This document shows, one piece after another, positions 1-23,748 of a stretch of 64,000 nt of DNA. The stretch's first letter is position 1. Each line of letters starts with the position of its first letter. Position numbers and translations under genes: made by a program. Source of the stretch: Trichormus sp. ATA11-4-KO1 (GTDB lineage Bacteria > Cyanobacteriota > Cyanobacteriia > Cyanobacteriales > Nostocaceae); contig JAHHIM010000036.1 in the NCBI GenBank assembly GCA_019358915.1, forward strand, positions 192,001-256,000. The letters run 5' to 3'. The notes under the pieces were generated by a model that saw nothing but the letters and a program-made list of their open reading frames with translations, made no database searches and had not been told where the DNA came from.

Positions 1-221
1 ACAACAACTATTACTCGACTCTTGTTTTGGCTGACAGCTAATCGCCCCAACTGTTCATCACTAAATATTACCTCCTCAATGAAAAATACTCGTCTTTCTG
101 AAGCACAGCGACTTAAAATGTGTTGCAATCTGGGATGAACACAATTCCAAGGTAAGTTAGATAGGCATACTATGTCAGGTGTATCCGAGATAAAAGTAGT
201 AAAACTACGAGTAATTGTCAT
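1..221 (-). CDS. N-terminal part of a glycosyltransferase (GT1/GT4-like, of the type often associated with UDP-galactopyranose mutase); runs off the window edge
   Basis: My own translation from ATG at 221 gives MTITRSFTTFISDTPDIVCLSNLPWNCVHPRLQHILSRCASERRVFFIEE..., resembling the 'DIVCLSHLRWNFVYQRPQHLLSR...RVFFIEEP' N-terminus; GAGGAAA RBS upstream; open to position 1. Confidence 0.65.
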   Translation of the reverse strand, partial: MTITRSFTTFISDTPDIVCLSNLPWNCVHPRLQHILSRCASERRVFFIEEVIFSDEQLGRLAVSQNKSRVIVV

Positions 222-337
222 ATTTTCCTCAGCATACTTGGTATATTTTGAGTTATTTAAAAGTCTGTTAAACGCAGAGGAAAGCGAAGATAAGTGCAGA
301 GGATAAGCAGAGATTTAAGGAAGACGATATGTCTTTA

Positions 338-2194
338 CTATGAGTATTTATGAATTTCTAAATATTTTTCCCAAAAATCTCTATTAGTCAGTTCTGGTAG
401 AGTATCTCTATATTTTTGCTTTAGTTGAGGATATTTAACTAATATTTCCAAAGACAGAAAGATATTTTTACTCAAGATTTTGAAAAATTTACCTCTAGAA
501 AAAGTAACAGCAAAGCCTTCCTGATTGACGAGATTATAATACAAAGCTTTTCTAGATCTAAAAACATTAATAGGTCTGTAATTTTGCATGGGAACAACTT
601 TATATACTTGTTTAGTTAATCTATTGTCTTGATGAAAAAATATAGTAGGTAATAGATGGCCATTTAATATCATAAGTCTGAACCAACGATGAATTGTGTT
701 TTCTGTTTCAACTAGACTTTCTTTATATTTGCCATATATAAAAGGTAATTCGTGATTTTTGACTGGCTTTTCCCCCATACGCATAATTTCTGAATTTTTC
801 TCTTCAGGATCAAGTGCTTTCAAATATTCCGGGCCTTTGAGAAAATCAGCAACAGCCTGAAGAACTATATTTGCACTTTTATATCTATAACAAAATGCCT
901 CTCTCATACTAAATTTAACAAAATACTTGATTGCATCTAGCTTGCTAAAATCATCATTAGTAATAACATTGAAAATTAATTCATTCTTTTTTAAGTAATA
1001 GTTCATCATCGGAGAATATTTATTTTCTAATGCTTCATGCCATACGCATACACCATTTAAAGTAATAATTTTATTATTCAATCTCCTGGGAAATTCCATA
1101 TCATCCATTTTGATAAAAAATGGATATGGTAACTTAGAATTATCTATAATTTGTGTGGGAAAACAAAAGAGCCACCAACCATTGTAAGTAATATATTCTT
1201 CTATTTCGTTGAATAAAATATTTTTTATATCTCTCAAATCCAGATCGGGTTTGAGTCGAATTACTTCTTTGTCCCAAATTGCTCCATTTTCATGCTGAAT
1301 ATACTGATCATCTAACTTCAGCATACTACCACCAAGACATATACTCTCGTCATTAGCCACAGTTTGAAAATTATAAATTCTCTCAAATACTTCTGGCGAT
1401 ATAATTACATCATCATCCATAAATATAATATGAGAAAAATCTGATTTGCGGTTTAAGACCTCAATTATTCCTCTAGTATATCCACCGCTACCACCCGCAT
1501 TTTTGTTACGGATTAAATGTATCCTTGAATTACATATATCCTTGAGAGTTCTACCGTTATCTATAACAAATACTTCAAACTTATCTGCTGTGCTTGGATG
1601 ATTTAGTAAAATTTTTTCTATTAAATTGATATTTTTATATATATAAGCTTCTCTTTTGTAAGTACATATGATAATTGCCATTTTTTTAGTTAATTCTTGG
1701 CGATTATTTATATTTGTCTGAAAATAACCACCTATAAATAAGCAGTTATTTTCTAAAGCCTCTATTTCTAGATAAAGTAATCCTTTATATAAGCTAATAT
1801 CTATATTCTTAAATATACTAACTTCTTCACAATCATTATTAGCAATTAGTTTTTGATCTACTAATCTTTTAAATTGTGTTGCATATTTTATATTTATTAA
1901 ACTTACCTTAAATTTTCCTTTTAAATATAGGTTAATCCCTATTGTTTTCACCTTGGTATATTGTTGCCATTTTTGAATTGAAAAAGAATTAAAATATGTA
2001 TCAAAGTGAATAATTCCCGATTTTTTAAGTTCAACAGTATTCCCTTCGTAATTGAGTACACATTTAGAATTCAATCTCAAGAAAAGTTCTTCTACAGTGC
2101 AAATATCTAAATTTGGTAAAATAATATTTTGCAGTTTAATAGTCGTTTGAGTATTGGTACTATTAAGTATGGGATTTACTAAAAGCTCTGACAT
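338..2194 (-). CDS. GT2 glycosyltransferase, galactofuranosyltransferase GlfT2-like
   Basis: N-terminal LQNIILP...FDTYFNSFSIQKW domain, NAGGSGG, FMDDD (DxD), GWWLFCFP, KMDDMEF and WHE motifs; ATG at 2194 preferred over TTG at 2221. Confidence 0.8.
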   Translation of the reverse strand: MSELLVNPILNSTNTQTTIKLQNIILPNLDICTVEELFLRLNSKCVLNYEGNTVELKKSGIIHFDTYFNSFSIQKWQQYTKVKTIGINLYLKGKFKVSLINIKYATQFKRLVDQKLIANNDCEEVSIFKNIDISLYKGLLYLEIEALENNCLFIGGYFQTNINNRQELTKKMAIIICTYKREAYIYKNINLIEKILLNHPSTADKFEVFVIDNGRTLKDICNSRIHLIRNKNAGGSGGYTRGIIEVLNRKSDFSHIIFMDDDVIISPEVFERIYNFQTVANDESICLGGSMLKLDDQYIQHENGAIWDKEVIRLKPDLDLRDIKNILFNEIEEYITYNGWWLFCFPTQIIDNSKLPYPFFIKMDDMEFPRRLNNKIITLNGVCVWHEALENKYSPMMNYYLKKNELIFNVITNDDFSKLDAIKYFVKFSMREAFCYRYKSANIVLQAVADFLKGPEYLKALDPEEKNSEIMRMGEKPVKNHELPFIYGKYKESLVETENTIHRWFRLMILNGHLLPTIFFHQDNRLTKQVYKVVPMQNYRPINVFRSRKALYYNLVNQEGFAVTFSRGKFFKILSKNIFLSLEILVKYPQLKQKYRDTLPELTNRDFWEKYLEIHKYS

Positions 2195-2229
2195 TTTTTT
2201 ATCCTTGTTGTAAATATTCAACTACAATT

Positions 2230-2991
2230 TTAGAGAGAAGTACTAAAAGTATCAGTAGTCATTGTAGTTTTTAGATACTCTTTAACAACTTTTTTGGCAT
2301 TACCAATTAGTTTAATTTTTCCTTTATCCAACCAAATTACCCTCTCACATGAGTTTTGAATAAACTCCAAATCATGAGAAACTACTAAAACTGTCGCGTC
2401 AGCAGTCCAAAACTTTTCAATTCGTTGCTTACACTTATTTCTAAAACTCTCATCTCCTACCGAAAGTACTTCATCTAAAATCAAAATATCTGGTTGTACA
2501 TCAGTGGCGATCGCAAAGCCTAATCGTGCTACCATACCAGATGATAAAACTTTTACTGGGACTAAAGAATAATCCTGTAATTGAGAAAATTCTAGAATTG
2601 ATGGCACTCTGGCAATCATTTGTTGGCGCGAAAACCCCAACATGACTCCATAAAAGATAATGTTATCAATCACTGAAATTTCAGTATCAAAACCAGCACC
2701 TAATTCAATCAATGGGGCAATTTCTCCTCCTACTCGCACTACTCCTGATGTAGGTTGTAAAATCCCACAAATTACTTTCAAAAGTGTAGATTTACCTGAC
2801 CCATTCGCGCCAATAATACCAATTTTTTTACCTGCTTCCACCTGTAAATTAATTTCATCCAATACTAACTTTCTCGTAGGTTGACGATACCTCCCTTCTA
2901 AAAAAGACAATATTGTTTTCTTCAAGTCATAAGAAAACTCTTCTTGTGTTCGTCTCCATAAAGAAACTTGATCTAGGCGTATTATTTCCAT
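2230..2991 (-). CDS. wzt: Polysaccharide ABC exporter, ATP-binding subunit (Wzt/TagH type)
   Basis: Walker A GANGSGKST, LSSGM signature, ILILDEVLSVGD Walker B; no C-terminal carbohydrate-binding domain. Confidence 0.9.
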   Translation of the reverse strand: MEIIRLDQVSLWRRTQEEFSYDLKKTILSFLEGRYRQPTRKLVLDEINLQVEAGKKIGIIGANGSGKSTLLKVICGILQPTSGVVRVGGEIAPLIELGAGFDTEISVIDNIIFYGVMLGFSRQQMIARVPSILEFSQLQDYSLVPVKVLSSGMVARLGFAIATDVQPDILILDEVLSVGDESFRNKCKQRIEKFWTADATVLVVSHDLEFIQNSCERVIWLDKGKIKLIGNAKKVVKEYLKTTMTTDTFSTSL

Positions 2992-3798
2992 TTACAACAA
3001 ATCCATAAATGAATTTCGCCACCAACGAAAACAACTTAATCCTAGTCCCAAAAAAATTACCCCACTTAAAAGTGCATGTGCGATTAAATTAATATCTGGT
3101 GGTGTTCCTGATAATGAAATCTGGCGAATACTTTCAATTACTGGTAGTAATGGATTTAATAATAAAAATGACTTCACCGATTCTGGAACAATTGCTGCTG
3201 GGTAAAAGATAGGACTACTCAACCACAGCATAAATACAATTAATTCATAGAAGTAAGGTAAATCCCTAAAAAATACAAATAAAGCACTTACTAACAGACT
3301 AATACCACTACATACTAAAATTAAACCAATTAAAGGAAATAAAAGTGCTAACACATTGACGAAGCTTCTAGAGTTAATCAGCGTCATAATTGCCAGTAAT
3401 GGCAAAACACCAATTACAAACTGAAATATATTTGCTGCAATTAATGAAATAGGAAAAATACTCACAGGTAAGCAAATTTTATTTAACAAACCACCATTAT
3501 TAACTACACTCCATAAGGCTTGTGTTGTTGATGCTGAAAAGAAATTAATTACTACTAATCCCGTAAATACTGCCAACACATAGTTAACAATCGAATTGTC
3601 ATAATATGCTGCAAATGCAGTCCCAAATATTGCAGTATACACTCCCGTCATTAGTAACGGATTGATCAGTGACCAATACACTCCCAAAAAAGAACCTCGG
3701 TAACGTACCTTTAAATTTCGGGATACCAAAACTTGTAGTAATTCCCAGTAATGCTGTAGTTTTGAATTTTGTAAATCGACTTTTAATGATAGGAGCAT
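2992..3798 (-). CDS. wzm: Polysaccharide ABC exporter permease (Wzm/TagG type)
   Basis: RNLKVRYRGSFLGVYWSLINPL motif, about 6 hydrophobic segments, abuts wzt; ATG at 3798. Confidence 0.9.
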   Translation of the reverse strand: MLLSLKVDLQNSKLQHYWELLQVLVSRNLKVRYRGSFLGVYWSLINPLLMTGVYTAIFGTAFAAYYDNSIVNYVLAVFTGLVVINFFSASTTQALWSVVNNGGLLNKICLPVSIFPISLIAANIFQFVIGVLPLLAIMTLINSRSFVNVLALLFPLIGLILVCSGISLLVSALFVFFRDLPYFYELIVFMLWLSSPIFYPAAIVPESVKSFLLLNPLLPVIESIRQISLSGTPPDINLIAHALLSGVIFLGLGLSCFRWWRNSFMDLL

Positions 3799-3823
3799 AT
3801 TGAAGTATCCGCTAACAAATCTA

Positions 3824-6166
3824 TTAAACATTGGCTTTATGATTATTTAAACCACTTTGCCAACCAACGCGAATTCCATCAAAAGCTTGTTGAATATAAT
3901 TGATTAAAGTTGAATTAGGAAGACTATGGGTAAATTTAAGGCGGATAATTCTCAACAAACAGCGATAAATGAGTAATGATGTTAAACGAGCAACTAAAAT
4001 AGGAAAGAAAACTTTCTTAAATCCATGTTTTACAGCAAAATAAGTTGTATTCTTTGCCAAAGAATACCAGCAAGTAAGATGTTTCTGATCAATACGATTG
4101 TGACTAGGTTGAGGATAATGATCTACAGATACATCAGCATAGTGAACTTCATATCCTGCCTGAATTAAACGTAAACAAACATCTGTTTCATCAAGATAGT
4201 AATCAAAAAATTCATCGTAGCCGTTGATTTTTTCTAGTATGTCTTTACGGAAAGATGAATTAGTACCCATTAAACCGTTAAACCAAAAGCCATTTGCTTG
4301 GTTATAATTCGCAGCATCATCAGCACGAATAGCAATGGTTTCGCTGAAAATATTGGTAATTCCCCGATGAAATTGTAAGGGATAACCAGGACGAGTTAAG
4401 TCTCTCACTGCGCCGCCAACTGCTGCACATTTTTCTCCACGTTGTGAATAAATGTGTAGCAATTGTTCTATCCATTCAGATGGCGGAACTGCATCATCAT
4501 CAAAAAAAGCCACAATTGAACCTGTAGCTAATTTGATTCCCATATTACGGGAATAACTAATATTTTTAGGCTCAACCTTGAGAAAATTGAGTTTAAAGCT
4601 GTATTTTTTAGATGCCTTACTGACTATTTCACTTGTCTCCATTGTTGATGAAGCATCGATAATAATTACTTCAAAGTTTTGGTAATTAATTAGTGCAATT
4701 GATTGCAGCGCCTTTTCCAGAAAAATCGGGCGATCGCTTGTACAAATTATGATGGAAACTAAAGGATTTAATGAAGTAGATATTGTTTTTGGCATTTGTG
4801 ATAACTTAATTTTGTGAATTTGCCAATATATCTGCCACATCTGATTGATAGTCTTGAGAACTGACTGAATCAGAACTAAAAAATTCAGAGAAACAGGCAC
4901 GTAGCCATTACCTGTAAAGTAGTAAACTTGTTTTGCTAAATTGAGAGCATAAAGTTCAGGTTTTTCACAAGTAACGAGGGCAATATCAACTGGTTTCTTA
5001 AACCAAGCAACTAACCAGAACCACAGACGACTTGTTAATTTATCAGGGAGATACCAGGGAGTTAGTTTTTGCTCTAACTCCATCTTTTTTAAAACCTGAC
5101 TTTGTGAATCATCTTGATAGATAGTAGATTGCACCAAAACTTTGGCTTGTTTATTAATAATTTCTGCTAAAGATAATTCAGTATAATTAAGATTTCCAGG
5201 CATTTTGCCTTGAATACCATTAATGAAATCTTGAAAACCTGCAATAGAAATTTCTGCGAGAAAGTGTCGCCCTGTAGCTGCGTAATAAACTAGTCGAGGT
5301 AAACTTACAATTACCCTTTTTAATAACAGGTTTGGTCGGTGTTTTTGCCAACAGTAACAAAGATTCCGCTCATCGTAATAATTAATCCAGGGGCGGCATT
5401 TAAAGTCAGGCGAATCATGCCAAATAATTGAATGGGGATTAACAGCAACAATCCAACCAGCCTGTTTGGCTCGTAAGCACCACTCTACATCATCAAAGTG
5501 GAGAAAATAATTTTCAAATAAGCCAATTTGTTGCACAACTTGCCGACGAATTAATAGTGATGCAGCTGCACAAACATCTACACTAACGTAAGATTTACCT
5601 TGTAAAATATCTTCATTGCCAATATTACTTTGGTTGGCAAAATTTATTTTTAAATGTGCTTTGGCATCATTGATAAAGCTACCAATTTCTTGAATAGTAT
5701 GAGGTTCCTTGAGCTTGCGAATTTGAGAACCTACTAAGCCAACTTCATCATGATTTTGTAAAGTTTTAATTAGTGAACTGAGAGCTAGAGGATCTAGATG
5801 TACATCATCATCAAGTAGCCAGATGTAATCGTATTCAAGTTGACTAACAACCTGTAAGCCATAGGAAAAACCGCCAGAACCACCTAAATTACTACCTGTT
5901 TGCAGAACCTTGACATTGGCAAAAGAAAATTTTTCTAAATAAGCTTGAGTACCATCATCAGAAGCATTATCTACAACATAAATATCAATTTTGGTCTGAT
6001 ATAGCTTCAGTTTGCAAATATCTTCCAGTAATGAGCAAATATAGTTTAATTTATTATGAGTAACAATTAAAATAGCAACTTTTATGTTACTCACATAAGA
6101 AATGTGGGTTATTGCCTGTGGTTGAGCTAAAAATCCCAAAAAGTAATTTTTCACTTTTGCCAACAC
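3824..6166 (-). CDS. Two-domain GT2 glycosyltransferase
   Basis: Two GT-A domains: VVDNASDDG/WLLDDD/HFDDVEW and VSIIICT/FFDDD/DETDVC. Confidence 0.85.
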   Translation of the reverse strand: MLAKVKNYFLGFLAQPQAITHISYVSNIKVAILIVTHNKLNYICSLLEDICKLKLYQTKIDIYVVDNASDDGTQAYLEKFSFANVKVLQTGSNLGGSGGFSYGLQVVSQLEYDYIWLLDDDVHLDPLALSSLIKTLQNHDEVGLVGSQIRKLKEPHTIQEIGSFINDAKAHLKINFANQSNIGNEDILQGKSYVSVDVCAAASLLIRRQVVQQIGLFENYFLHFDDVEWCLRAKQAGWIVAVNPHSIIWHDSPDFKCRPWINYYDERNLCYCWQKHRPNLLLKRVIVSLPRLVYYAATGRHFLAEISIAGFQDFINGIQGKMPGNLNYTELSLAEIINKQAKVLVQSTIYQDDSQSQVLKKMELEQKLTPWYLPDKLTSRLWFWLVAWFKKPVDIALVTCEKPELYALNLAKQVYYFTGNGYVPVSLNFLVLIQSVLKTINQMWQIYWQIHKIKLSQMPKTISTSLNPLVSIIICTSDRPIFLEKALQSIALINYQNFEVIIIDASSTMETSEIVSKASKKYSFKLNFLKVEPKNISYSRNMGIKLATGSIVAFFDDDAVPPSEWIEQLLHIYSQRGEKCAAVGGAVRDLTRPGYPLQFHRGITNIFSETIAIRADDAANYNQANGFWFNGLMGTNSSFRKDILEKINGYDEFFDYYLDETDVCLRLIQAGYEVHYADVSVDHYPQPSHNRIDQKHLTCWYSLAKNTTYFAVKHGFKKVFFPILVARLTSLLIYRCLLRIIRLKFTHSLPNSTLINYIQQAFDGIRVGWQSGLNNHKANV

Positions 6167-18632: not shown

Positions 18633-18790
18633 GGGTTTGCTGATGCCTTTGTTTAACAAATGCCAAAATTGCTTTACCCAATTTTACCGAATTATGTCGT
18701 TTTGTGAAGGAGAAAATACTTAATGGTAGTAGAAATTACAACTTATGTAAAGACCTACGTAAATACACTTAATTTATGATCAGATTTTCC

Positions 18791-18894
18791 GGCGTTGCAT
18801 ATTTGCGGGATGATTTTACTAGTTTTGTGCGATGGGCAGCGTTCGACTGAGCGCTGCCCACCCTAAGAGCATCATTTCTTGATTCAGCAACGCC
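18791..18894. repeat. Small element with GGCGTTGC...GCAACGCC inverted ends
   Basis: Inverted 8-bp ends with an internal GGGCAGCG...CGCTGCCC hairpin; related ends ATTAGCAACGCC and ATTAGCAACACC at about 39151 and 43678. Confidence 0.5.
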
Positions 18895-18921
18895 AATTTT
18901 ACTCCTACCCATCGCCTGGAT

Positions 18922-19263
18922 CTAGAGTGCAGATTGAATCATTTCTGCGTATTGTTTTTTAGGCTTCAAGCCCGCAATCTGTGCTAATGTTTGCTGCTGT
19001 TTCAGTAATACTACTGTAGGGGCACTTCTGACACCAAAATTAATAGCTAGTTCAGGTTCTTCGCTCATATCGAGTTCAACCAAGTGCAATTTACCTGTGT
19101 GAGCATCAGCTATTTGATGTAGTACAGGTTGAAGTGTTTCACAGGAAGGACAGTAGGGAGCCACAAACTTGACAATGATTAGCTGATCAGACTCTTGCAT
19201 CAACCATTCAAAAGCTGCTCGTCCTGTAAAGAAAGTTTGAGCCAGAGAAAAAGTCTCTTGCAT
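18922..19263 (-). CDS. Thioredoxin resembling the C-terminal Trx domain of NTRC (CPSC active site)
   Basis: ESDQLIIVKFVAPYCPSCETL...GVRSAPTV; AGGAG RBS before ATG at 19263. Confidence 0.85.
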   Translation of the reverse strand: MQETFSLAQTFFTGRAAFEWLMQESDQLIIVKFVAPYCPSCETLQPVLHQIADAHTGKLHLVELDMSEEPELAINFGVRSAPTVVLLKQQQTLAQIAGLKPKKQYAEMIQSAL

Positions 19264-19298
19264 ATTTATCTCCTGATAATTGTGATAAAAAACCCTGT

Positions 19299-20261
19299 TT
19301 AGGCAGCGAAAGTCACGAGCGATCGCTGCTCTGATAACCACCGTTCAGCTTCCAGGGCTGCCATACAACCTGTGCCAGCTGCGGTAATTGCCTGACGATA
19401 AATGTGATCTTGAACGTCTCCAGCCGCCCAAATGCCAGGGATATTGGTGGCTGTACTTTTACCCTGAGTTTTGATGTAGCCCGCTTCATCGAGTTCCAGT
19501 TGCTCCTGAAACAGCTGCGTGTTGGGGGTGTGTCCAATGGCGTAGAATAAACCACTTACGGCTAGCGCAGAAACTGCACCAGTGAGATTGTCTTGAACTT
19601 GGACGCAACGGAGGACGGCATCACCATCCACGCTAATAGGTGAACTATACCAATGGATGTGAATTTGGCTGTGATTGAATATGCGCTCCTGCATGGTCTT
19701 AGAAGCCCGCAGGCGAACGCTACGTACCAGTAAATGAACCTTACGGGCATACTTAGTTAAATATAAAGCTTCTTCCACAGCCGCATCACCGCCACCAACG
19801 ACAGCAATATCTGCATTCGCAAACAAAGGATTTGCCCCATCGCAAATTGCACAGGCGGAGATACCGTTATTCCAAAACTTATCCTCACCCGGCAAATGTA
19901 ATCTTTTGGCAGTTGCTCCCGTACAGATGATGAGAGCGCGAGCCTTAACTTCTAGCAAATCAGCAGAGGCTACAGCAAACGGGTATTGAGTAAAATCCAC
20001 AGCAATCACATCATCGGTGATCAATGTCGCACCCCAGCGCCTTGCCTGCTGGCGCATCTGCTGCATTAACTTTGGCCCTTGAACTCCTTCGGGGAAACCG
20101 GGATAGTTCTCTACCTCAGTGGTGGTCATCAATTGACCTCCGGGTATTCCCCCAGTACTGAAACCTTCAAATACCACGGGACTGAGTTGAGCGCGTCCCG
20201 CATAGATGGCGGCAGTATAACCAGCAGGGCCAGAACCAATAATCACCAGATTCTCGACCAT
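19299..20261 (-). CDS. trxB: NADPH-dependent thioredoxin-disulfide reductase (NTR)
   Basis: [54 protein letters not shown]...[10 protein letters not shown]. Confidence 0.93.
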
Positions 20262-20268
20262 GATTAAC

Positions 20269-21120
20269 CTAACCTCCCACGAACCATTGAGTGCCGGTAA
20301 ACAGGTAGTATGCCCCAGTCAGAATTAACGCCAAACTGCCAAAGCGGATAATTCCCTCGGAATGTTTTAACAACTGATTACTTTGTTTAGCCAGTCCCGT
20401 AAATAAACTCGCTAGGAAAATCAGCATAGTATAACCTAGAGCATAGCTAACCATTGTCAGCGTACCCAATACCTGGGAACCTGTTGCTGCGGCCGCCGCC
20501 AGCACTGCAAATAGCACTGGACTAGCACAAGGGGAACTCACCAGGGCAAAAGTCAACCCCACCCCATAAGGCCCAGCCTGAGGGAGATTCACATTCATTT
20601 CGGGTAGAGGCAGCTTTACCACTCCCATCAACCACAGACCCATCACAGCCATAATCAGTCCTACTACTATATTGATATAGCCCCGGTACTCTACCATTAC
20701 GGCTCCGGCAAAAGATGAAACCAAGCCAAACAAACTTAAAATTGTCACTGCTCCCAAGACAAACAAGCCAGCCTTAGCAAAAGCATCCCAACGTGATTTA
20801 ATTTTCAGTGTACCGATGTAACTGAGGTTAACTGGTAAAAGTGCCAAGATACAGGGTGATACACTAGCAAGCACCCCACCGATAAACGCCAAAGGCAACA
20901 AAACAAAGGGATTTGCCGTATTCTGTTGGTCAAACCACTGTTGATAACGGTTTTCGACAATCGAAATCACTCGTTCAATAGGATGACTAATTACAGGCCC
21001 CAGAGTAATTACCAGAATGAGGGAGAGCAATCCCAATCCACCATAGACTAGCCATTTTTTCGAGATTTTAGAGCGCCGGGAAGCTTTATGCTCAGTGGAC
21101 GACTGAGATGTTCGTGTCAT
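20269..21120 (-). CDS. ccdA: CcdA/DsbD-beta-type transmembrane electron transporter
   Basis: [11 protein letters not shown] and SSPCASPVL cysteine pair in a multi-pass membrane protein; extra N-terminal TM segment. Confidence 0.87.
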
Positions 21121-21328
21121 TAAGTTCTCCTTAAGCTATGAAGAGATGGAGTCATTTTATGTCCGTTCCCATACCCGTCATTGCGTTGGCGAACACCACT
21201 GAGATGCTCCATTTCACCTCGCAATAACAAAGGAGAAGGAATATAGCTAATACCAATTCGTCAAAATCCAGCAGATGAATCTGACAAACTTAATTACGCA
21301 TTACGAATTGGTACAAAGCCATCACTCA

Positions 21329-21934
21329 CTAAATACTCGCTAAAGCCGTGTCGAGTACTTTGGTGTAGTCATCCTTGTTCGGATTATTTTTAAAAATTGT
21401 TAAAATTTTGCCAGTAGCCGGGTCAACAATAGCTACAGTGCTTGTTTGGCTCTTGTTAGCTTCCAGAAATTTACTCAGACCTAATTTTGCTGCCCTAGCT
21501 TCCGTTTCTTTCACTGTGGCTTGATCAGTCACATCCAGAACAACAAAATTGACCTTGCCGGAATATTCCTGTTTCAATTGTGACATGGTGGGAGCAATAT
21601 TCTTGCAGCCAGGACACCAGGTAGCAAACACATCCACCACAACTGGTTTACCTTGAAGTTCTTGGGCTAGAGGACCTCCTACAGAGTTGGCTTTAGCAGC
21701 GCAGGGATTTTTAGCAGCGCATGGGTTTTTAGCAGCGCAAGGATTTTTAGCAGCGCATGGGTTTTTAGCAGCGCATGGGTTTTTAGCAGCGCATGGGTTT
21801 GCCTGAGAAACATCAGTTGATGATGGAGCTTGATTTTGAGAAATATTATCTGGGTTTGTTGCGCTGCATGATACTGTCAAAATAAGACCACTCAAACACA
21901 CTAGACTTAACAAAAATTTGCTCGATTTGTACAT
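21329..21934 (-). CDS. Exported thioredoxin-domain lipoprotein with 6 NPCAAK repeats
   Basis: ATG at 21934 with GAGGAGA RBS; lipobox-like LTVS-C; (NPCAAK)x6; VVVDVFATWCPGC. Confidence 0.85.
   Translation of the reverse strand: MYKSSKFLLSLVCLSGLILTVSCSATNPDNISQNQAPSSTDVSQANPCAAKNPCAAKNPCAAKNPCAAKNPCAAKNPCAAKANSVGGPLAQELQGKPVVVDVFATWCPGCKNIAPTMSQLKQEYSGKVNFVVLDVTDQATVKETEARAAKLGLSKFLEANKSQTSTVAIVDPATGKILTIFKNNPNKDDYTKVLDTALASI
21692..21799 (-). repeat. Six tandem 18-bp coding repeats (NPCAAK)
   Basis: AA(C/T)CC(A/T/C)TGCGCTGCTAAA x6, with synonymous variation only. Confidence 0.95.
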
Positions 21935-22030
21935 TAGGTTCTTCTCCTCACGTTTAAATAGGATGTTTTTTCCACAATGCACCTAGACGTGCATGTTCCG
22001 TTGGTTTTTCCGAGACGAGAAATTGAAATT

Positions 22031-22103
22031 GGAACTGTCAATTGTGGAGCATTTGTTTATAAGACGAATGAGCCATCAAATTTGGATTTATAAATTCAAA
22101 ATG
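22031..22103 (-). promoter_or_regulatory. Conserved upstream element with ECF-sigma-like promoter AATCC-N16-TCGTC (copy 1)
   Basis: Minus strand AATCC aaatttgatggctcat TCGTCTTATAA; clearly homologous to 23076-23150. Confidence 0.6.
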
Positions 22104-22149
22104 TTTTCTTAGCACTAAGTACAACATTTCATTAATTCGTAGCGAATTC

Positions 22150-22325
22150 TTTGCGTACCTCTGCGCATCCCTCTGCACACGACAGTCGCTACAAGTCGGC
22201 AAAGCCTTATGCCTACGGCACGCTACGCGGTAAGCGCAGCTATGCCCGTTAGGGCTTTACGGCAGTTCCTCTTTGGGGAAACCACCAAGACCGGACTGCC
22301 TCACCAACGCGCTGTCTCCCCTTTG
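22150..22325. repeat. Cluster of nested short dispersed repeats between the two exported thioredoxin genes
   Basis: Contains the 41-nt block shared with about 8785-8825, and hairpin GGCAGT...GGGGAAACC...ACTGCC similar to those at about 14017-14060 and 25111-25151. Confidence 0.6.
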
Positions 22326-22441
22326 TGTTTAAATTTCCACCCTCAATTCGCCACGATTTTACGCAAATCTGTACTAAGTGGCGTTTGCAGCCATAAAAAG
22401 CTAGCTTTACCCCTAAAGATAGGGGCAAAGCCATAATTCAA

Positions 22442-22975
22442 TTAATTGTTTGCTAAAGCGGTTTCGAGTATCTTGGTGTAATCAGCCTTATTGGCATTGT
22501 TTTGGTACAGAGCTAAAATGTTGCCAGTAGCCGGGTCAACAATAGCTACTGTGCTTGTTTTGCTCTTATTAGCCTCTAGGAATTTCCCTAGACCTAATTT
22601 TTCAGCTTTAGCTTGCGTTTCTTTGAGTTTGGCCTTATCAGTTACATCCAGAACGACAAAGTTGACCTTGCCGGAGTATTCCTGTTTCAATTGTGACAGG
22701 GTAGGAGCAATATTCTTGCAGCCAGGACACCAAGTCGCAAATACGTCCACTACGACTGGTTTACCTTGAAGTTCTTGGGCTAGAGGCCCTCCCACAGAAT
22801 TGGCTTTAGCAGCACAAGGATTTTTGGACGCACAAGGATTTGCCTGAGCAAGTTTTGTAATTGATGATTGAGCTTCAGTTGCAGAAATACTAGCTGAGGT
22901 TGTTGCTACCATCGATACTGTAAAAACAAGGCTGCTCAAACAGATGTTGAGCAAGAAATTCCCATGTTTGCGCAT
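22442..22975 (-). CDS. Exported (Sec signal) thioredoxin-domain protein with 2 NPCA(S/A)K repeats; paralog of 21329-21934
   Basis: Signal peptide, ANPCASKNPCAAKANSVGGPLAQELQGKPVVVDVFATWCPGC; Trx domain nearly identical to the paralog. Confidence 0.85.
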   Translation of the reverse strand: MRKHGNFLLNICLSSLVFTVSMVATTSASISATEAQSSITKLAQANPCASKNPCAAKANSVGGPLAQELQGKPVVVDVFATWCPGCKNIAPTLSQLKQEYSGKVNFVVLDVTDKAKLKETQAKAEKLGLGKFLEANKSKTSTVAIVDPATGNILALYQNNANKADYTKILETALANN

Positions 22976-23075
22976 ACAATTTTTCCTGTTTTATAGCTTC
23001 AATTGCAGGACGGATGCTGCCACAATGCCAAATACCAAGTTTTGCGGTTTTTCCCTAAAATAGGGAACTAAAACT

Positions 23076-23150
23076 GGAACTGTGAATTTTGGAGCATCTG
23101 CTTATAAGACGACTGAGCTATCAAAATCGGATTTAATTAAATTTAAAATG
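23076..23150 (-). promoter_or_regulatory. Conserved upstream element with ECF-sigma-like promoter AATCC-N16-TCGTC (copy 2)
   Basis: Minus strand AATCC gattttgatagctcag TCGTCTTATAA; same spacing as copy 1. Confidence 0.6.
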
Positions 23151-23212: not shown

Positions 23213-23635
23213 CTAGTCAATGTCAACCATTGGAGCTCGTTCGCCACGACACCATTGAAAGAAATCCCGAGCGTCTAGTACAAGGGAAATTAATACTGTA
23301 CCAGTTACTTCCCAAGCCCACGCCATCAAGAGACTTGAATCAAGTGATTGATAGTAGAAGACGAACAAGAAAGGAATTGGTGTCCACCAAATTAAATGTG
23401 CCAGCCCCAAGAGCTTGACTAAGCCAAAGCGCAGAGCCAGCCAGCCGCCGAAGATAATGTTTCCCATCTGGCAAATACTAACAGCAAGACCAAATGGGTG
23501 AGAAAGGAAGAATAAGGTAGCTACTCCACTGCACAAAATGAGCCACCAAAGCCAAGCTTGCAGATGTCGCGGAAGTCGGGCCAATTGCCTCACAAACCGA
23601 ACGAACGAGTATTTAGGAGAGGTCATAAAGTACAT
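23213..23635 (-). CDS. Hypothetical membrane protein (about 4 TM)
   Basis: Hydrophobic Trp-rich 140-aa ORF, co-oriented with the redox genes. Confidence 0.65.
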   Translation of the reverse strand: MYFMTSPKYSFVRFVRQLARLPRHLQAWLWWLILCSGVATLFFLSHPFGLAVSICQMGNIIFGGWLALRFGLVKLLGLAHLIWWTPIPFLFVFYYQSLDSSLLMAWAWEVTGTVLISLVLDARDFFQWCRGERAPMVDID

Positions 23636-23748
23636 TCAATAAAGTTACTTTACTGAATGTACTTTATTGAGAATGAACTAGTCTCACGCAGAGGCGCAGA
23701 AAGTAAGAGATGGAAATCTTGCATTGTGAATTTTCTACTCGTATTCAG

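Follow-up and report, generated by a model that had tools for sequence, protein, structure and literature searches.

The window analysed here, a stretch of 64,000 nucleotides from Trichormus sp. ATA11-4-KO1, encodes five genes on the minus strand between positions 22975 and 18922, in the order of transcription exported thioredoxin (Trx) 1, Trx 2, ccdA, ntr (NADPH-thioredoxin reductase, NTR) and trxE. The two thioredoxins predicted to be exported carry a cysteine repeat, with two NPCA(S/A)K units in Trx 1 and six NPCAAK units in Trx 2; the five co-oriented genes, their order and both repeats are as the original prediction had described them. That prediction regarded the genes as a self-contained reducing relay across the membrane and the repeat as its dedicated client. 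Our comparison of genomes shows that the constant companion of the repeat is a thiol dioxygenase homologue and not the relay. The repeat is portable, being found on thioredoxins, on YHS proteins or as free lipopeptides, often without any relay. A functional coupling of the repeat with the dioxygenase is highly probable.

For the phylum as a whole, 401 genomes were sampled evenly, and 45 of them encode the exported Trx. A DNA pattern for the repeat, which misses some variant repeats (G034, G123 and G121), matched 38 of the 401 genomes, while the reversed control matched none. Twenty-one of the 38 have no exported-Trx match (one of the 21 has a copy cut by a contig end). Conversely, among 31 relay loci, fetched from the exported-Trx genomes with an E-value below 1e-27 and leaving aside 13 weaker matches and the window's own locus, 17 have at least two repeats and 14 fewer than two. 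Both counts argue against the repeat as the dedicated client of the relay.

The 21 repeat genomes without an exported-Trx match were compared with 51 relatives without the repeat, which we chose within the same genera and families; 20 of the 21 and 10 of the 51 encode the enzyme. Of these 10, the five single copies placed in a tree all fell in a separate nif-linked clade (support 100), four have copies outside the tree, and the tenth genome (G173) has one copy of each type. The nine genera in which both states occur all agree in direction (sign test, p 0.004); in one of them, g55, the enzyme was found in 8/8 repeat genomes, each time about 1 kb from the repeat, and in 0/11 others. In 36 exported-Trx genomes, whose states were set by hand and some of whose enzyme types were assigned by identity and copy number only, repeat and enzyme occurred together in 21, neither in 14, and the enzyme only in one.

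Within the family of the window genome, a copy of the dioxygenase homologue is present in 47/47 other genomes, and in the cases fetched it lies in a cox/nif-linked cluster. A second copy was found in all 10 family genomes with repeats (one copy is broken), in one of seven with a repeat-less Trx and in none of the 31 that lack the Trx. Outside the family, two genomes that had looked like exceptions, each with a sole enzyme copy, turned into support for the link, since this copy lies beside a free 9-repeat lipopeptide and a kinase pair in G071 and behind a YHS protein with 12 repeats in G392. In these two genomes, as in G275 and G145, the neighbour of the enzyme is a free repeat peptide or a YHS protein with repeats instead of a Trx.

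Several observations weigh against the link. Independent pairs on well-supported branches number just three, all or nearly all pointing the same way (p 0.25). In two genomes (G065 and G173), the repeat-type enzyme is present but a repeat was not found, one genome (G202) has a repeat at a contig edge and no enzyme, and a locus with a repeat on a YHS protein (L063) has no enzyme within 14 kb.

The repeat and its partner enzyme

The six NPCAAK units of Trx 2 are exact and differ at synonymous positions only. Among 52,694 six-frame open reading frames (ORFs) of the 5.97-Mb genome, just the two Trx genes contain at least two NPCxxK units. The motif is strict, with Ala following Cys in 451 of 453 Pro-Cys units and Lys at +3 in 443, as would be expected of a core recognised by an enzyme. 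The number of NPC units before the active site ranges from 0 to 11 in the best 120 of the 1,503 Trx 2 homologues found.

In 20 newly fetched repeat loci, the carrier was a YHS protein (12), a free peptide (6) or a cut Trx (1), and one locus was unreadable; within the fetched stretches, these loci encode the dioxygenase in 16 cases, a kinase pair in 12 and DoxX in two. In Proteobacteria and others, the repeat either borders SoxA/TsdA-like and P460 cytochromes or follows a signal peptide by itself, in most cases close to DUF6969. A search for the dioxygenase gave one weak match in five proteobacterial repeat genomes and none in loci L063-L098. DUF6969 was rejected as a partner of the cyanobacterial repeat (0/43 genomes, positive control 5/5), and DUF6969 and the dioxygenase look mutually exclusive as repeat partners. 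Some proteobacterial repeat loci (L081, L082, L072 and L090) sit among mercury-resistance, AhpD and ArsS-type genes. At L044:8138-8356, a free lipopeptide with three DPCAGKK units lies between the Trx and ccdA genes. Full-text literature searches found no description of the NPCAAK repeat, and searches on the repeat, cysteine-rich peptides, thiol dioxygenases and YHS found no tie of the repeat to a thiol dioxygenase in print.

The partner enzyme is a cytoplasmic cupin nearest to 3-mercaptopropionate dioxygenase (MDO; E-value 9e-18), and its structural model (pLDDT 92) has a TM-score of 0.73 to the closest solved relatives. It has the hallmarks of thiol dioxygenases, i.e., the cupin fold, the 3-His iron site and the outer-sphere Tyr; His113, His115, His164, Tyr180 and Arg188 are invariant. 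MDO and cysteine dioxygenase (CDO; PDB 6xb9 and 4tlf for the two families) share the cupin fold and these His and Tyr residues with it at about 28% identity, but the partner enzyme has Asn for His in the outer triad, and Gly-Trp-Ser/Ala (G83-W84-S85 aligned) in place of the Tyr/Arg or Gln with which CDO and MDO bind their substrates. We take these residues to be Tyr58/Arg60 in CDO and Gln62 in MDO; Arg188 of the partner enzyme may be equivalent to what is presumably Arg168 in MDO. A second thiol dioxygenase homologue (G000:C3:167714-174212) lies in a cluster with cox-type oxidase, nitrogenase-associated ArsC-like and cysK genes. The role of this cox/nif-linked paralogue is perhaps cysteine or oxygen control in heterocysts.

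The relay and its regulation

In the 31 sampled loci, ccdA always adjoins the exported Trx gene, the full NTR1 and TrxE pair is present in five and the dioxygenase homologue in 13. We also pooled 67 ccdA loci from all sources, with some genomes perhaps counted twice and eight distant or duplicate loci left out. NTR1 and TrxE were intact in 11 of them, TrxE occurred without a full NTR in eight, an NTR fragment alone in three, and neither gene in 45. The conserved core is the exported Trx with CcdA, while NTR1 and TrxE are accessory and the five-gene form is a fuller variant. Of the neighbourhood conservation that the original prediction had named as its check, the ccdA part stood and the NTR1 and TrxE part did not. 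The arrangement is local rather than self-contained, the likely regulator and the dioxygenase of the window genome being encoded on another contig.

The window CcdA matches a solved CcdA (5vkv, E-value 1.8e-12) and has a DsbD_TM domain with two Pro-Cys redox cysteines, both kept in 70 of 70 homologues. It is the second copy in the genome, 34% identical to the housekeeping CcdA; an identity as the arsenical permease ArsG was rejected (33 bits, cut-off 200). The NTR scores above the TIGR01292 cut-off (380.5 versus 343.45 bits) and has CAIC and GGGDAA motifs. It shares 65% identity with the NTR domain of NTRC from the same genome, and TrxE shares 39% with the Trx domain of this NTRC. By motif, gene order and likeness to NTRC, the two proteins fit the published NTR1/TrxE pair. 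A quick CcdA tree has a clade whose loci lack repeats, dioxygenase and TrxE, and another in which they occur, with repeated losses. In the repeat-less clade (L035-L043 and L132), cytochrome b561 and spondin-domain genes lie upstream of the exported Trx gene. A link of the repeat to NTR/TrxE was considered and rejected: TrxE accompanied the repeat in 11/14 versus 0/13 loci of a similarity-ranked set, but in 4/17 versus 2/14 of the evenly drawn one. We attribute the first result to clade history, because the link is missing in the evenly drawn set. The Trx 2 homologue P0032 (BAB73901.1), presumably a protein of Anabaena sp. PCC 7120, has no repeat cysteine.

In Anabaena sp. PCC 7120, as in the window, an NTR gene (alr2204) is followed by one for a YCPSC thioredoxin (Alr2205), both products being related to NTRC, and two WCXXC Trx-like genes lie upstream, a series conserved in several cyanobacteria (PMC7242069). 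According to the same account, the NTR reduces only Alr2205 in vitro, and NTRC reduces Alr2205 too, which fits the loss of NTR1 from many of our loci and the presence of TrxE without a full NTR in eight. The pair was later named NTR1/TrxE, with PDI-like, GST and Grx genes listed as neighbours (PMC9025218), and Cd was reported to raise both Alr2205 protein and transcript (bioRxiv 10.1101/2022.09.23.509143). The main text of PMC9025218, whose Fig. 4A or supplements may show ccdA, contains none of the terms CcdA, DsbD and periplasm. CcdA, export, repeats, an extracytoplasmic function (ECF) sigma promoter and a dioxygenase are unmentioned in the passages on NTR1/TrxE in both papers (PMC7242069 and PMC9025218). 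By title, no paper found on all2193, alr2200-2201 and alr2517 deals with this cluster.

A trans-membrane reducing relay is the natural reading of the exported Trx, CcdA, NTR1 and TrxE, and the CcdA cysteines, the constant presence of ccdA and the in vitro activity of the Anabaena NTR on a YCPSC thioredoxin (PMC7242069) support it, in agreement with the original prediction. The relay probably works as drawn, i.e., from NADPH to NTR1, TrxE, CcdA and the exported Trx. The failure to detect NTR and Alr2205 in unstressed Anabaena, which led to the suggestion that they are pseudogenes (PMC7242069), speaks against it. It is a variant of known CcdA-thioredoxin systems. In the CcdA-Etrx1/Etrx2-MsrAB2 system of Streptococcus pneumoniae (PMC3914529), electrons likewise pass from NADPH through TrxB, TrxA and CcdA to surface thioredoxin lipoproteins and serve against oxidative stress outside, but the window locus lacks MsrAB and has its own reductase/thioredoxin pair and cysteine repeats. 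The absence of a usual client from the locus was borne out for Msr and cytochrome-maturation genes, and no msrAB client was found in the window locus or among recurrent neighbours of related loci; a possibly exported MsrB is encoded on contig C65, unlinked to the relay genes. The further remark that no characterised system of this architecture was known stands for the repeat, which our literature searches did not find described, and falls for the cytoplasmic half, which is characterised, and for the gene series, which has been mentioned (PMC7242069 and PMC9025218).

Upstream of both Trx genes lies a duplicated 70-base element, the region around the promoter-like element P2 being 84% identical to that around P1. 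With a promoter matrix trained on 12 sites, all from other genomes, P1 (30.8 bits) and P2 (22.6 bits) were the first and second genome-wide matches; three genome shuffles gave 1, 1 and 2 matches of at least 20 bits and none at 26. The motif AxCC-N16/17-CGT[CA] precedes 35 of 92 exported-Trx ORFs and 24 of 48 ECF genes, versus 5 of 329 other ORFs. Its presence before ECF genes is what a sigma factor controlling its own gene would be expected to show, and the sigma gene of the window genome carries it. An ECF and RskA-like pair occurs in 16 of the 31 sampled loci. In the window genome, the sigma, the RskA-like anti-sigma, a gene that we take to be DoxX-like from its sequence, and the dioxygenase lie together on contig C10, unlinked to the relay. 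The most closely related locus (L019) has this block 2.4 kb upstream of its Trx genes, which suggests that the split in the window genome is recent. The sigma belongs to the cyanobacterial PRK12519 subfamily (276 bits, cut-off 222) and scores below the cut-off of the SigK profile (115 versus 226). The anti-sigma, whose gene adjoins that of the sigma on C10, scores above the PF10099 cut-off and has one membrane helix, beyond which lies one Cys invariant in 42 of 42 sequences. In view of the matches in the DNA, control of the Trx genes by an ECF sigma is very likely. The motif stands upstream of just 3 of 27 dioxygenase genes and is lacking at the window genome's copy, which weighs against the reading that the enzyme processes the repeat; a wider ECF regulon was not found in the window genome, whose spondin, Prx-like and ArsS genes are without the motif.

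The five genes look like two transcription units rather than one, because each Trx gene has its own promoter-like copy and a terminator-like hairpin follows Trx 1. The hairpin is weak by itself, as three such sites were found versus 4.8 in shuffles. In one RNA library (X1, a hot-spring metagenome by its record; share 0.12), contigs from a close relative span both Trx genes and ccdA and extend over parts of ntr. They cover 12 of 30 bins of a 20-kb stretch, strand and level not being readable, and give a weak hint of expression; in this relative, the Trx 1 repeat is one 18-base unit longer.

In most loci without the ECF pair, an OmpR-type kinase/regulator pair is encoded (10 loci). Twelve exported-Trx genes, all in ECF-less loci, are preceded by a direct repeat, YTCATC-N5-YTCA[TG], which was found in 0 of 328 background sequences. 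Its half-site resembles the TTCAT of the reported CopR site, TTCATN4-5TTCAT (PMC4182526). The spacing of the box (N6 versus N4-5) and the score of the kinase below the heavy-metal-sensor cut-off (218 versus 293 bits) speak against this likeness. In the kinase, one Cys between its two helices is invariant in nine of nine sequences. Thus, two unrelated sensors share a single outside-facing thiol, which suggests a thiol-reactive signal. In the mycobacterial SigK-RskA regulon with DipZ (PMC9861118), a CcdA-family gene and exported proteins are likewise under an ECF sigma and an RskA-type anti-sigma, but in the present case the sigma is not SigK, CcdA and Trx are separate genes, and a two-component system is interchangeable with the pair.

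Genes for ArsM/ArsS, MerF and MerR adjoin some loci and are hints of metals; arsM/arsS stand directly behind the sigma/anti-sigma pair in L028, L100 and L102. An orthologue-like response regulator (67%) is encoded beside ArsM/ArsS and spondin genes at G000:C7:57346-58047. A related kinase (48%) is encoded at G000:C73:95815-98516, behind genes that we take to be DM13-like and DUF4079-like. The C7 and C73 loci are scattered pieces of an alternative two-component regulon.

Readings of the link

The reading that we tentatively prefer, at somewhat less than even weight, is a stress-induced envelope thiol defence of two modules, probably directed at metals or oxidants that attack thiols, in which the dioxygenase processes the repeat cysteines. 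Thiol-reactive stress would hit the invariant outside-facing Cys of the RskA-like anti-sigma or, elsewhere, of the sensor kinase, and the ECF sigma, once released, would activate its own gene and the two Trx genes from AAATCC-N16/17-CGTC promoters. NTR1, or alternatively NTRC, would reduce TrxE, from which electrons would pass to CcdA and the exported Trx, as homology and the pneumococcal pathway suggest. Likely clients of the relay would be oxidised single-Cys envelope proteins, the sensor Cys (as feedback) and unmodified repeat cysteines. Sensor reset and the rescue of single-Cys proteins are likely jobs because the anti-sigma Cys is the sole conserved outside-facing Cys encoded with the relay in the repeat-less clade. 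The repeat would be a portable tag and the dioxygenase homologue its fixed partner, modifying it before export, and outside the cytoplasm, in the periplasm or the thylakoid lumen, the processed repeat would capture metal ions that seek thiols.

As a form of the coupling, direct modification of the repeat is a possibility that we hold with reserve. Minimal loci consist of a signal peptide with the repeat, the enzyme and a sensor, twice with DoxX. This layout resembles that of the bufferins/oxazolins, which, as described in PMC11626156, have in common with the present system a Sec-exported Cys precursor, a cytoplasmic non-haem iron enzyme, DoxX in some loci, ECF/anti-sigma control and a context of metal stress. 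The differences are that the partner here is a mononuclear 3-His cupin, that the repeat is in many cases part of a protein with a working redox domain, and that modification would be its presumed rather than established outcome. The MNIO family (DUF692) was found in none of five genomes searched, with a positive control in Caulobacter, and no DUF2063 partner was seen among recurrent neighbours, a genome-wide search for it not having been made.

Several points weigh against this processing, among them the exceptions and the scarcity of the ECF motif at dioxygenase genes given above. The closest solved relatives act on small thiols (3-mercaptopropionate dioxygenase), and the invariant Arg188 may bind a small carboxylate. 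A paralogue with 50-60% identity and the same active-site residues lies in the cox/nif-linked cluster beside cysK, with no repeat. Finally, if the repeat cysteines were irreversibly oxidised, they could not be recycled by the relay.

The enzyme's resemblance to small-thiol dioxygenases in sequence and fold serves equally an unmodified, recyclable thiol sink, which we regard as possible, with about one chance in its favour to two against. Metals, oxidants or small thiols would be captured by free repeat cysteines, which a fused Trx, in those proteins that have one, would reduce again, and the dioxygenase would only clear free cysteine or another small thiol from the cytoplasm under the same stress. 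The repeat does occupy a flexible stretch adjoining an intact WCxxC domain, its copy number (0-11) varies like a dosage trait, and the repeat-bearing CcdA clade is the one holding NTR1/TrxE. An analogy exists in SigF/NrsF-MrpX-YedY of Azospira suillum, likewise an ECF-controlled, periplasmic, low-complexity, sulfur-rich peptide next to a reductant (PMC4436054), which differs in having Met instead of Cys, a Mo-enzyme as reductase and no dioxygenase partner; our repeat has no Met, and yedYZ was not seen among recurrent neighbours. Nevertheless, more than half of the repeat genomes lack an exported-Trx match, the enzyme is lost together with the repeat and not with the relay, and in the 31-genome sample the repeats are uncorrelated with TrxE or with a full NTR. 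Moreover, a mere sponge would need no such strict PCAxK motif. Because of this strictness and the bufferin-like layout of the minimal loci, we narrowly favour direct processing of the repeat over the free-thiol sink.

The SoxA/TsdA-like cytochromes flanked by the proteobacterial repeat, near YeeE sulfur transporters, bring to mind a sulfur-carrier arm, in which the repeat would hold sulfane sulfur or mixed disulfides outside, the relay would cut them off and the dioxygenase would oxidise the released thiol or persulfide. The thiol-oxidising enzyme family and the nif-linked paralogue beside cysK agree with it. We consider it improbable, as no sulfur transporter, rhodanese or SQR recurs among the clustered neighbours of the cyanobacterial loci and minimal loci have no reductant. 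Least probable is a spacer or cross-linking tether (inter-chain disulfides) without chemistry of its own, travelling with the dioxygenase in one mobile stress cassette: copy number varies freely, down to zero in intact relays, the exported Trx is patchy (45/401 genomes) with frequent decay, and independent pairs are few, but free peptides of signal and repeat only exist, and the link outlasts swaps of carrier and regulator and unlinking to other contigs.

The processing of the repeat by the dioxygenase has a wider form, which we consider rather unlikely as a whole: the cupin thiol dioxygenase would be a maturase converting (N/D)PCA(A/S/G)K cysteines before Sec export, a new class of graftable metal-binding modification (on thioredoxins, YHS proteins and cytochromes), switched on by sensors with one outside Cys, and DUF6969 would be an unrelated stand-in in Proteobacteria.

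Features of the window and implications

Table 1. Positions in the window of the genes, repeats and predicted control elements
Feature	Position	Strand	Details
Exported thioredoxin 1	22442..22975	minus	177 aa, predicted signal peptide, WCPGC
Exported thioredoxin 2	21329..21934	minus	201 aa, likely lipoprotein (Cys23), WCPGC
CcdA-family membrane electron transporter	20269..21120	minus	283 aa, Cys90 and Cys198
NADPH-thioredoxin reductase, NTR1 type	19299..20261	minus	320 aa, CAIC
Cytoplasmic thioredoxin TrxE	18922..19263	minus	113 aa, YCPSC
NPCASK-NPCAAK repeat in Trx 1	22805..22840	minus	2 units
(NPCAAK)6 repeat in Trx 2	21692..21799	minus	residues 46-81, no confident structure
Promoter-like element P1	23106..23136	minus	AAATCC-N17-CGTCTT, predicted ECF sigma promoter of Trx 1
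Promoter-like element P2	22061..22091	minus	AAATCC-N17-CGTCTT, predicted promoter of Trx 2-ccdA-ntr-trxE
Terminator-like hairpin after Trx 1	22402..22433	minus	consensus scan only
Dispersed intergenic repeat, outside the system	22131..22380	no strand	58 blastn matches in the genome

The five products match Pfam/NCBIfam families above the curated cut-offs (Thioredoxin three times, DsbD_TM and thioredoxin reductase), and the exported Trx proteins score under those of TlpA, ResA and DsbE. Homologue N-termini place the most likely starts of Trx 2 and TrxE at ATG 21934 (not GTG 21982) and ATG 19263, respectively. Both exported Trx proteins have an N-terminal hydrophobic stretch (residues 7-25). That Trx 2 is a lipoprotein, as first proposed, is favoured by a lipobox-like Cys in 91 of 120 homologues, and less so by its own lipobox, LTVSC, which is non-canonical. 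In an AlphaFold2 model of Trx 2 built with 49 homologues, the Trx domain has the thioredoxin fold (pLDDT above 90), and residues 13-79, repeat included, have a pLDDT below 50.

Upstream of P1, a gene for a 140-aa membrane protein (23213-23635) sits at a rearrangement point and is preceded by a 21-base inverted repeat (23625-23667); it was rejected as part of the system, having no family match and no homologue in related loci. A second dispersed intergenic repeat at 18790-18896 has 12 matches in the genome. Farther along the minus strand, at about 35374-62120, lies what we take from the look of the translations to be a scytonemin-type cluster, presumably with an amino-acid dehydrogenase, ScyD/E/F-like beta-propeller and ebo-like proteins, duplicate trp/aro genes and a DsbA-like protein. 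These genes and the names of homologues point to a heterocyst-type cyanobacterium. Positions 1-6000 have a GC content of only 29-35% and carry glycosyltransferase-like and ABC polysaccharide-export-like genes.

For cyanobacteria, these results give the orphan NTR1/TrxE pair, once called possible pseudogenes, a specific task, the supply of a reducing pathway in the envelope, and a means of being switched on, and they propose a promoter and regulon for a poorly known ECF sigma. The NPCAAK repeat, widespread and undescribed, has a first partner from a known enzyme family. If the enzyme does modify the repeat, internal peptide cysteines would become a new class of substrates for thiol dioxygenases, and a new kind of modified-peptide metallophore would be added to the biology of metal stress.

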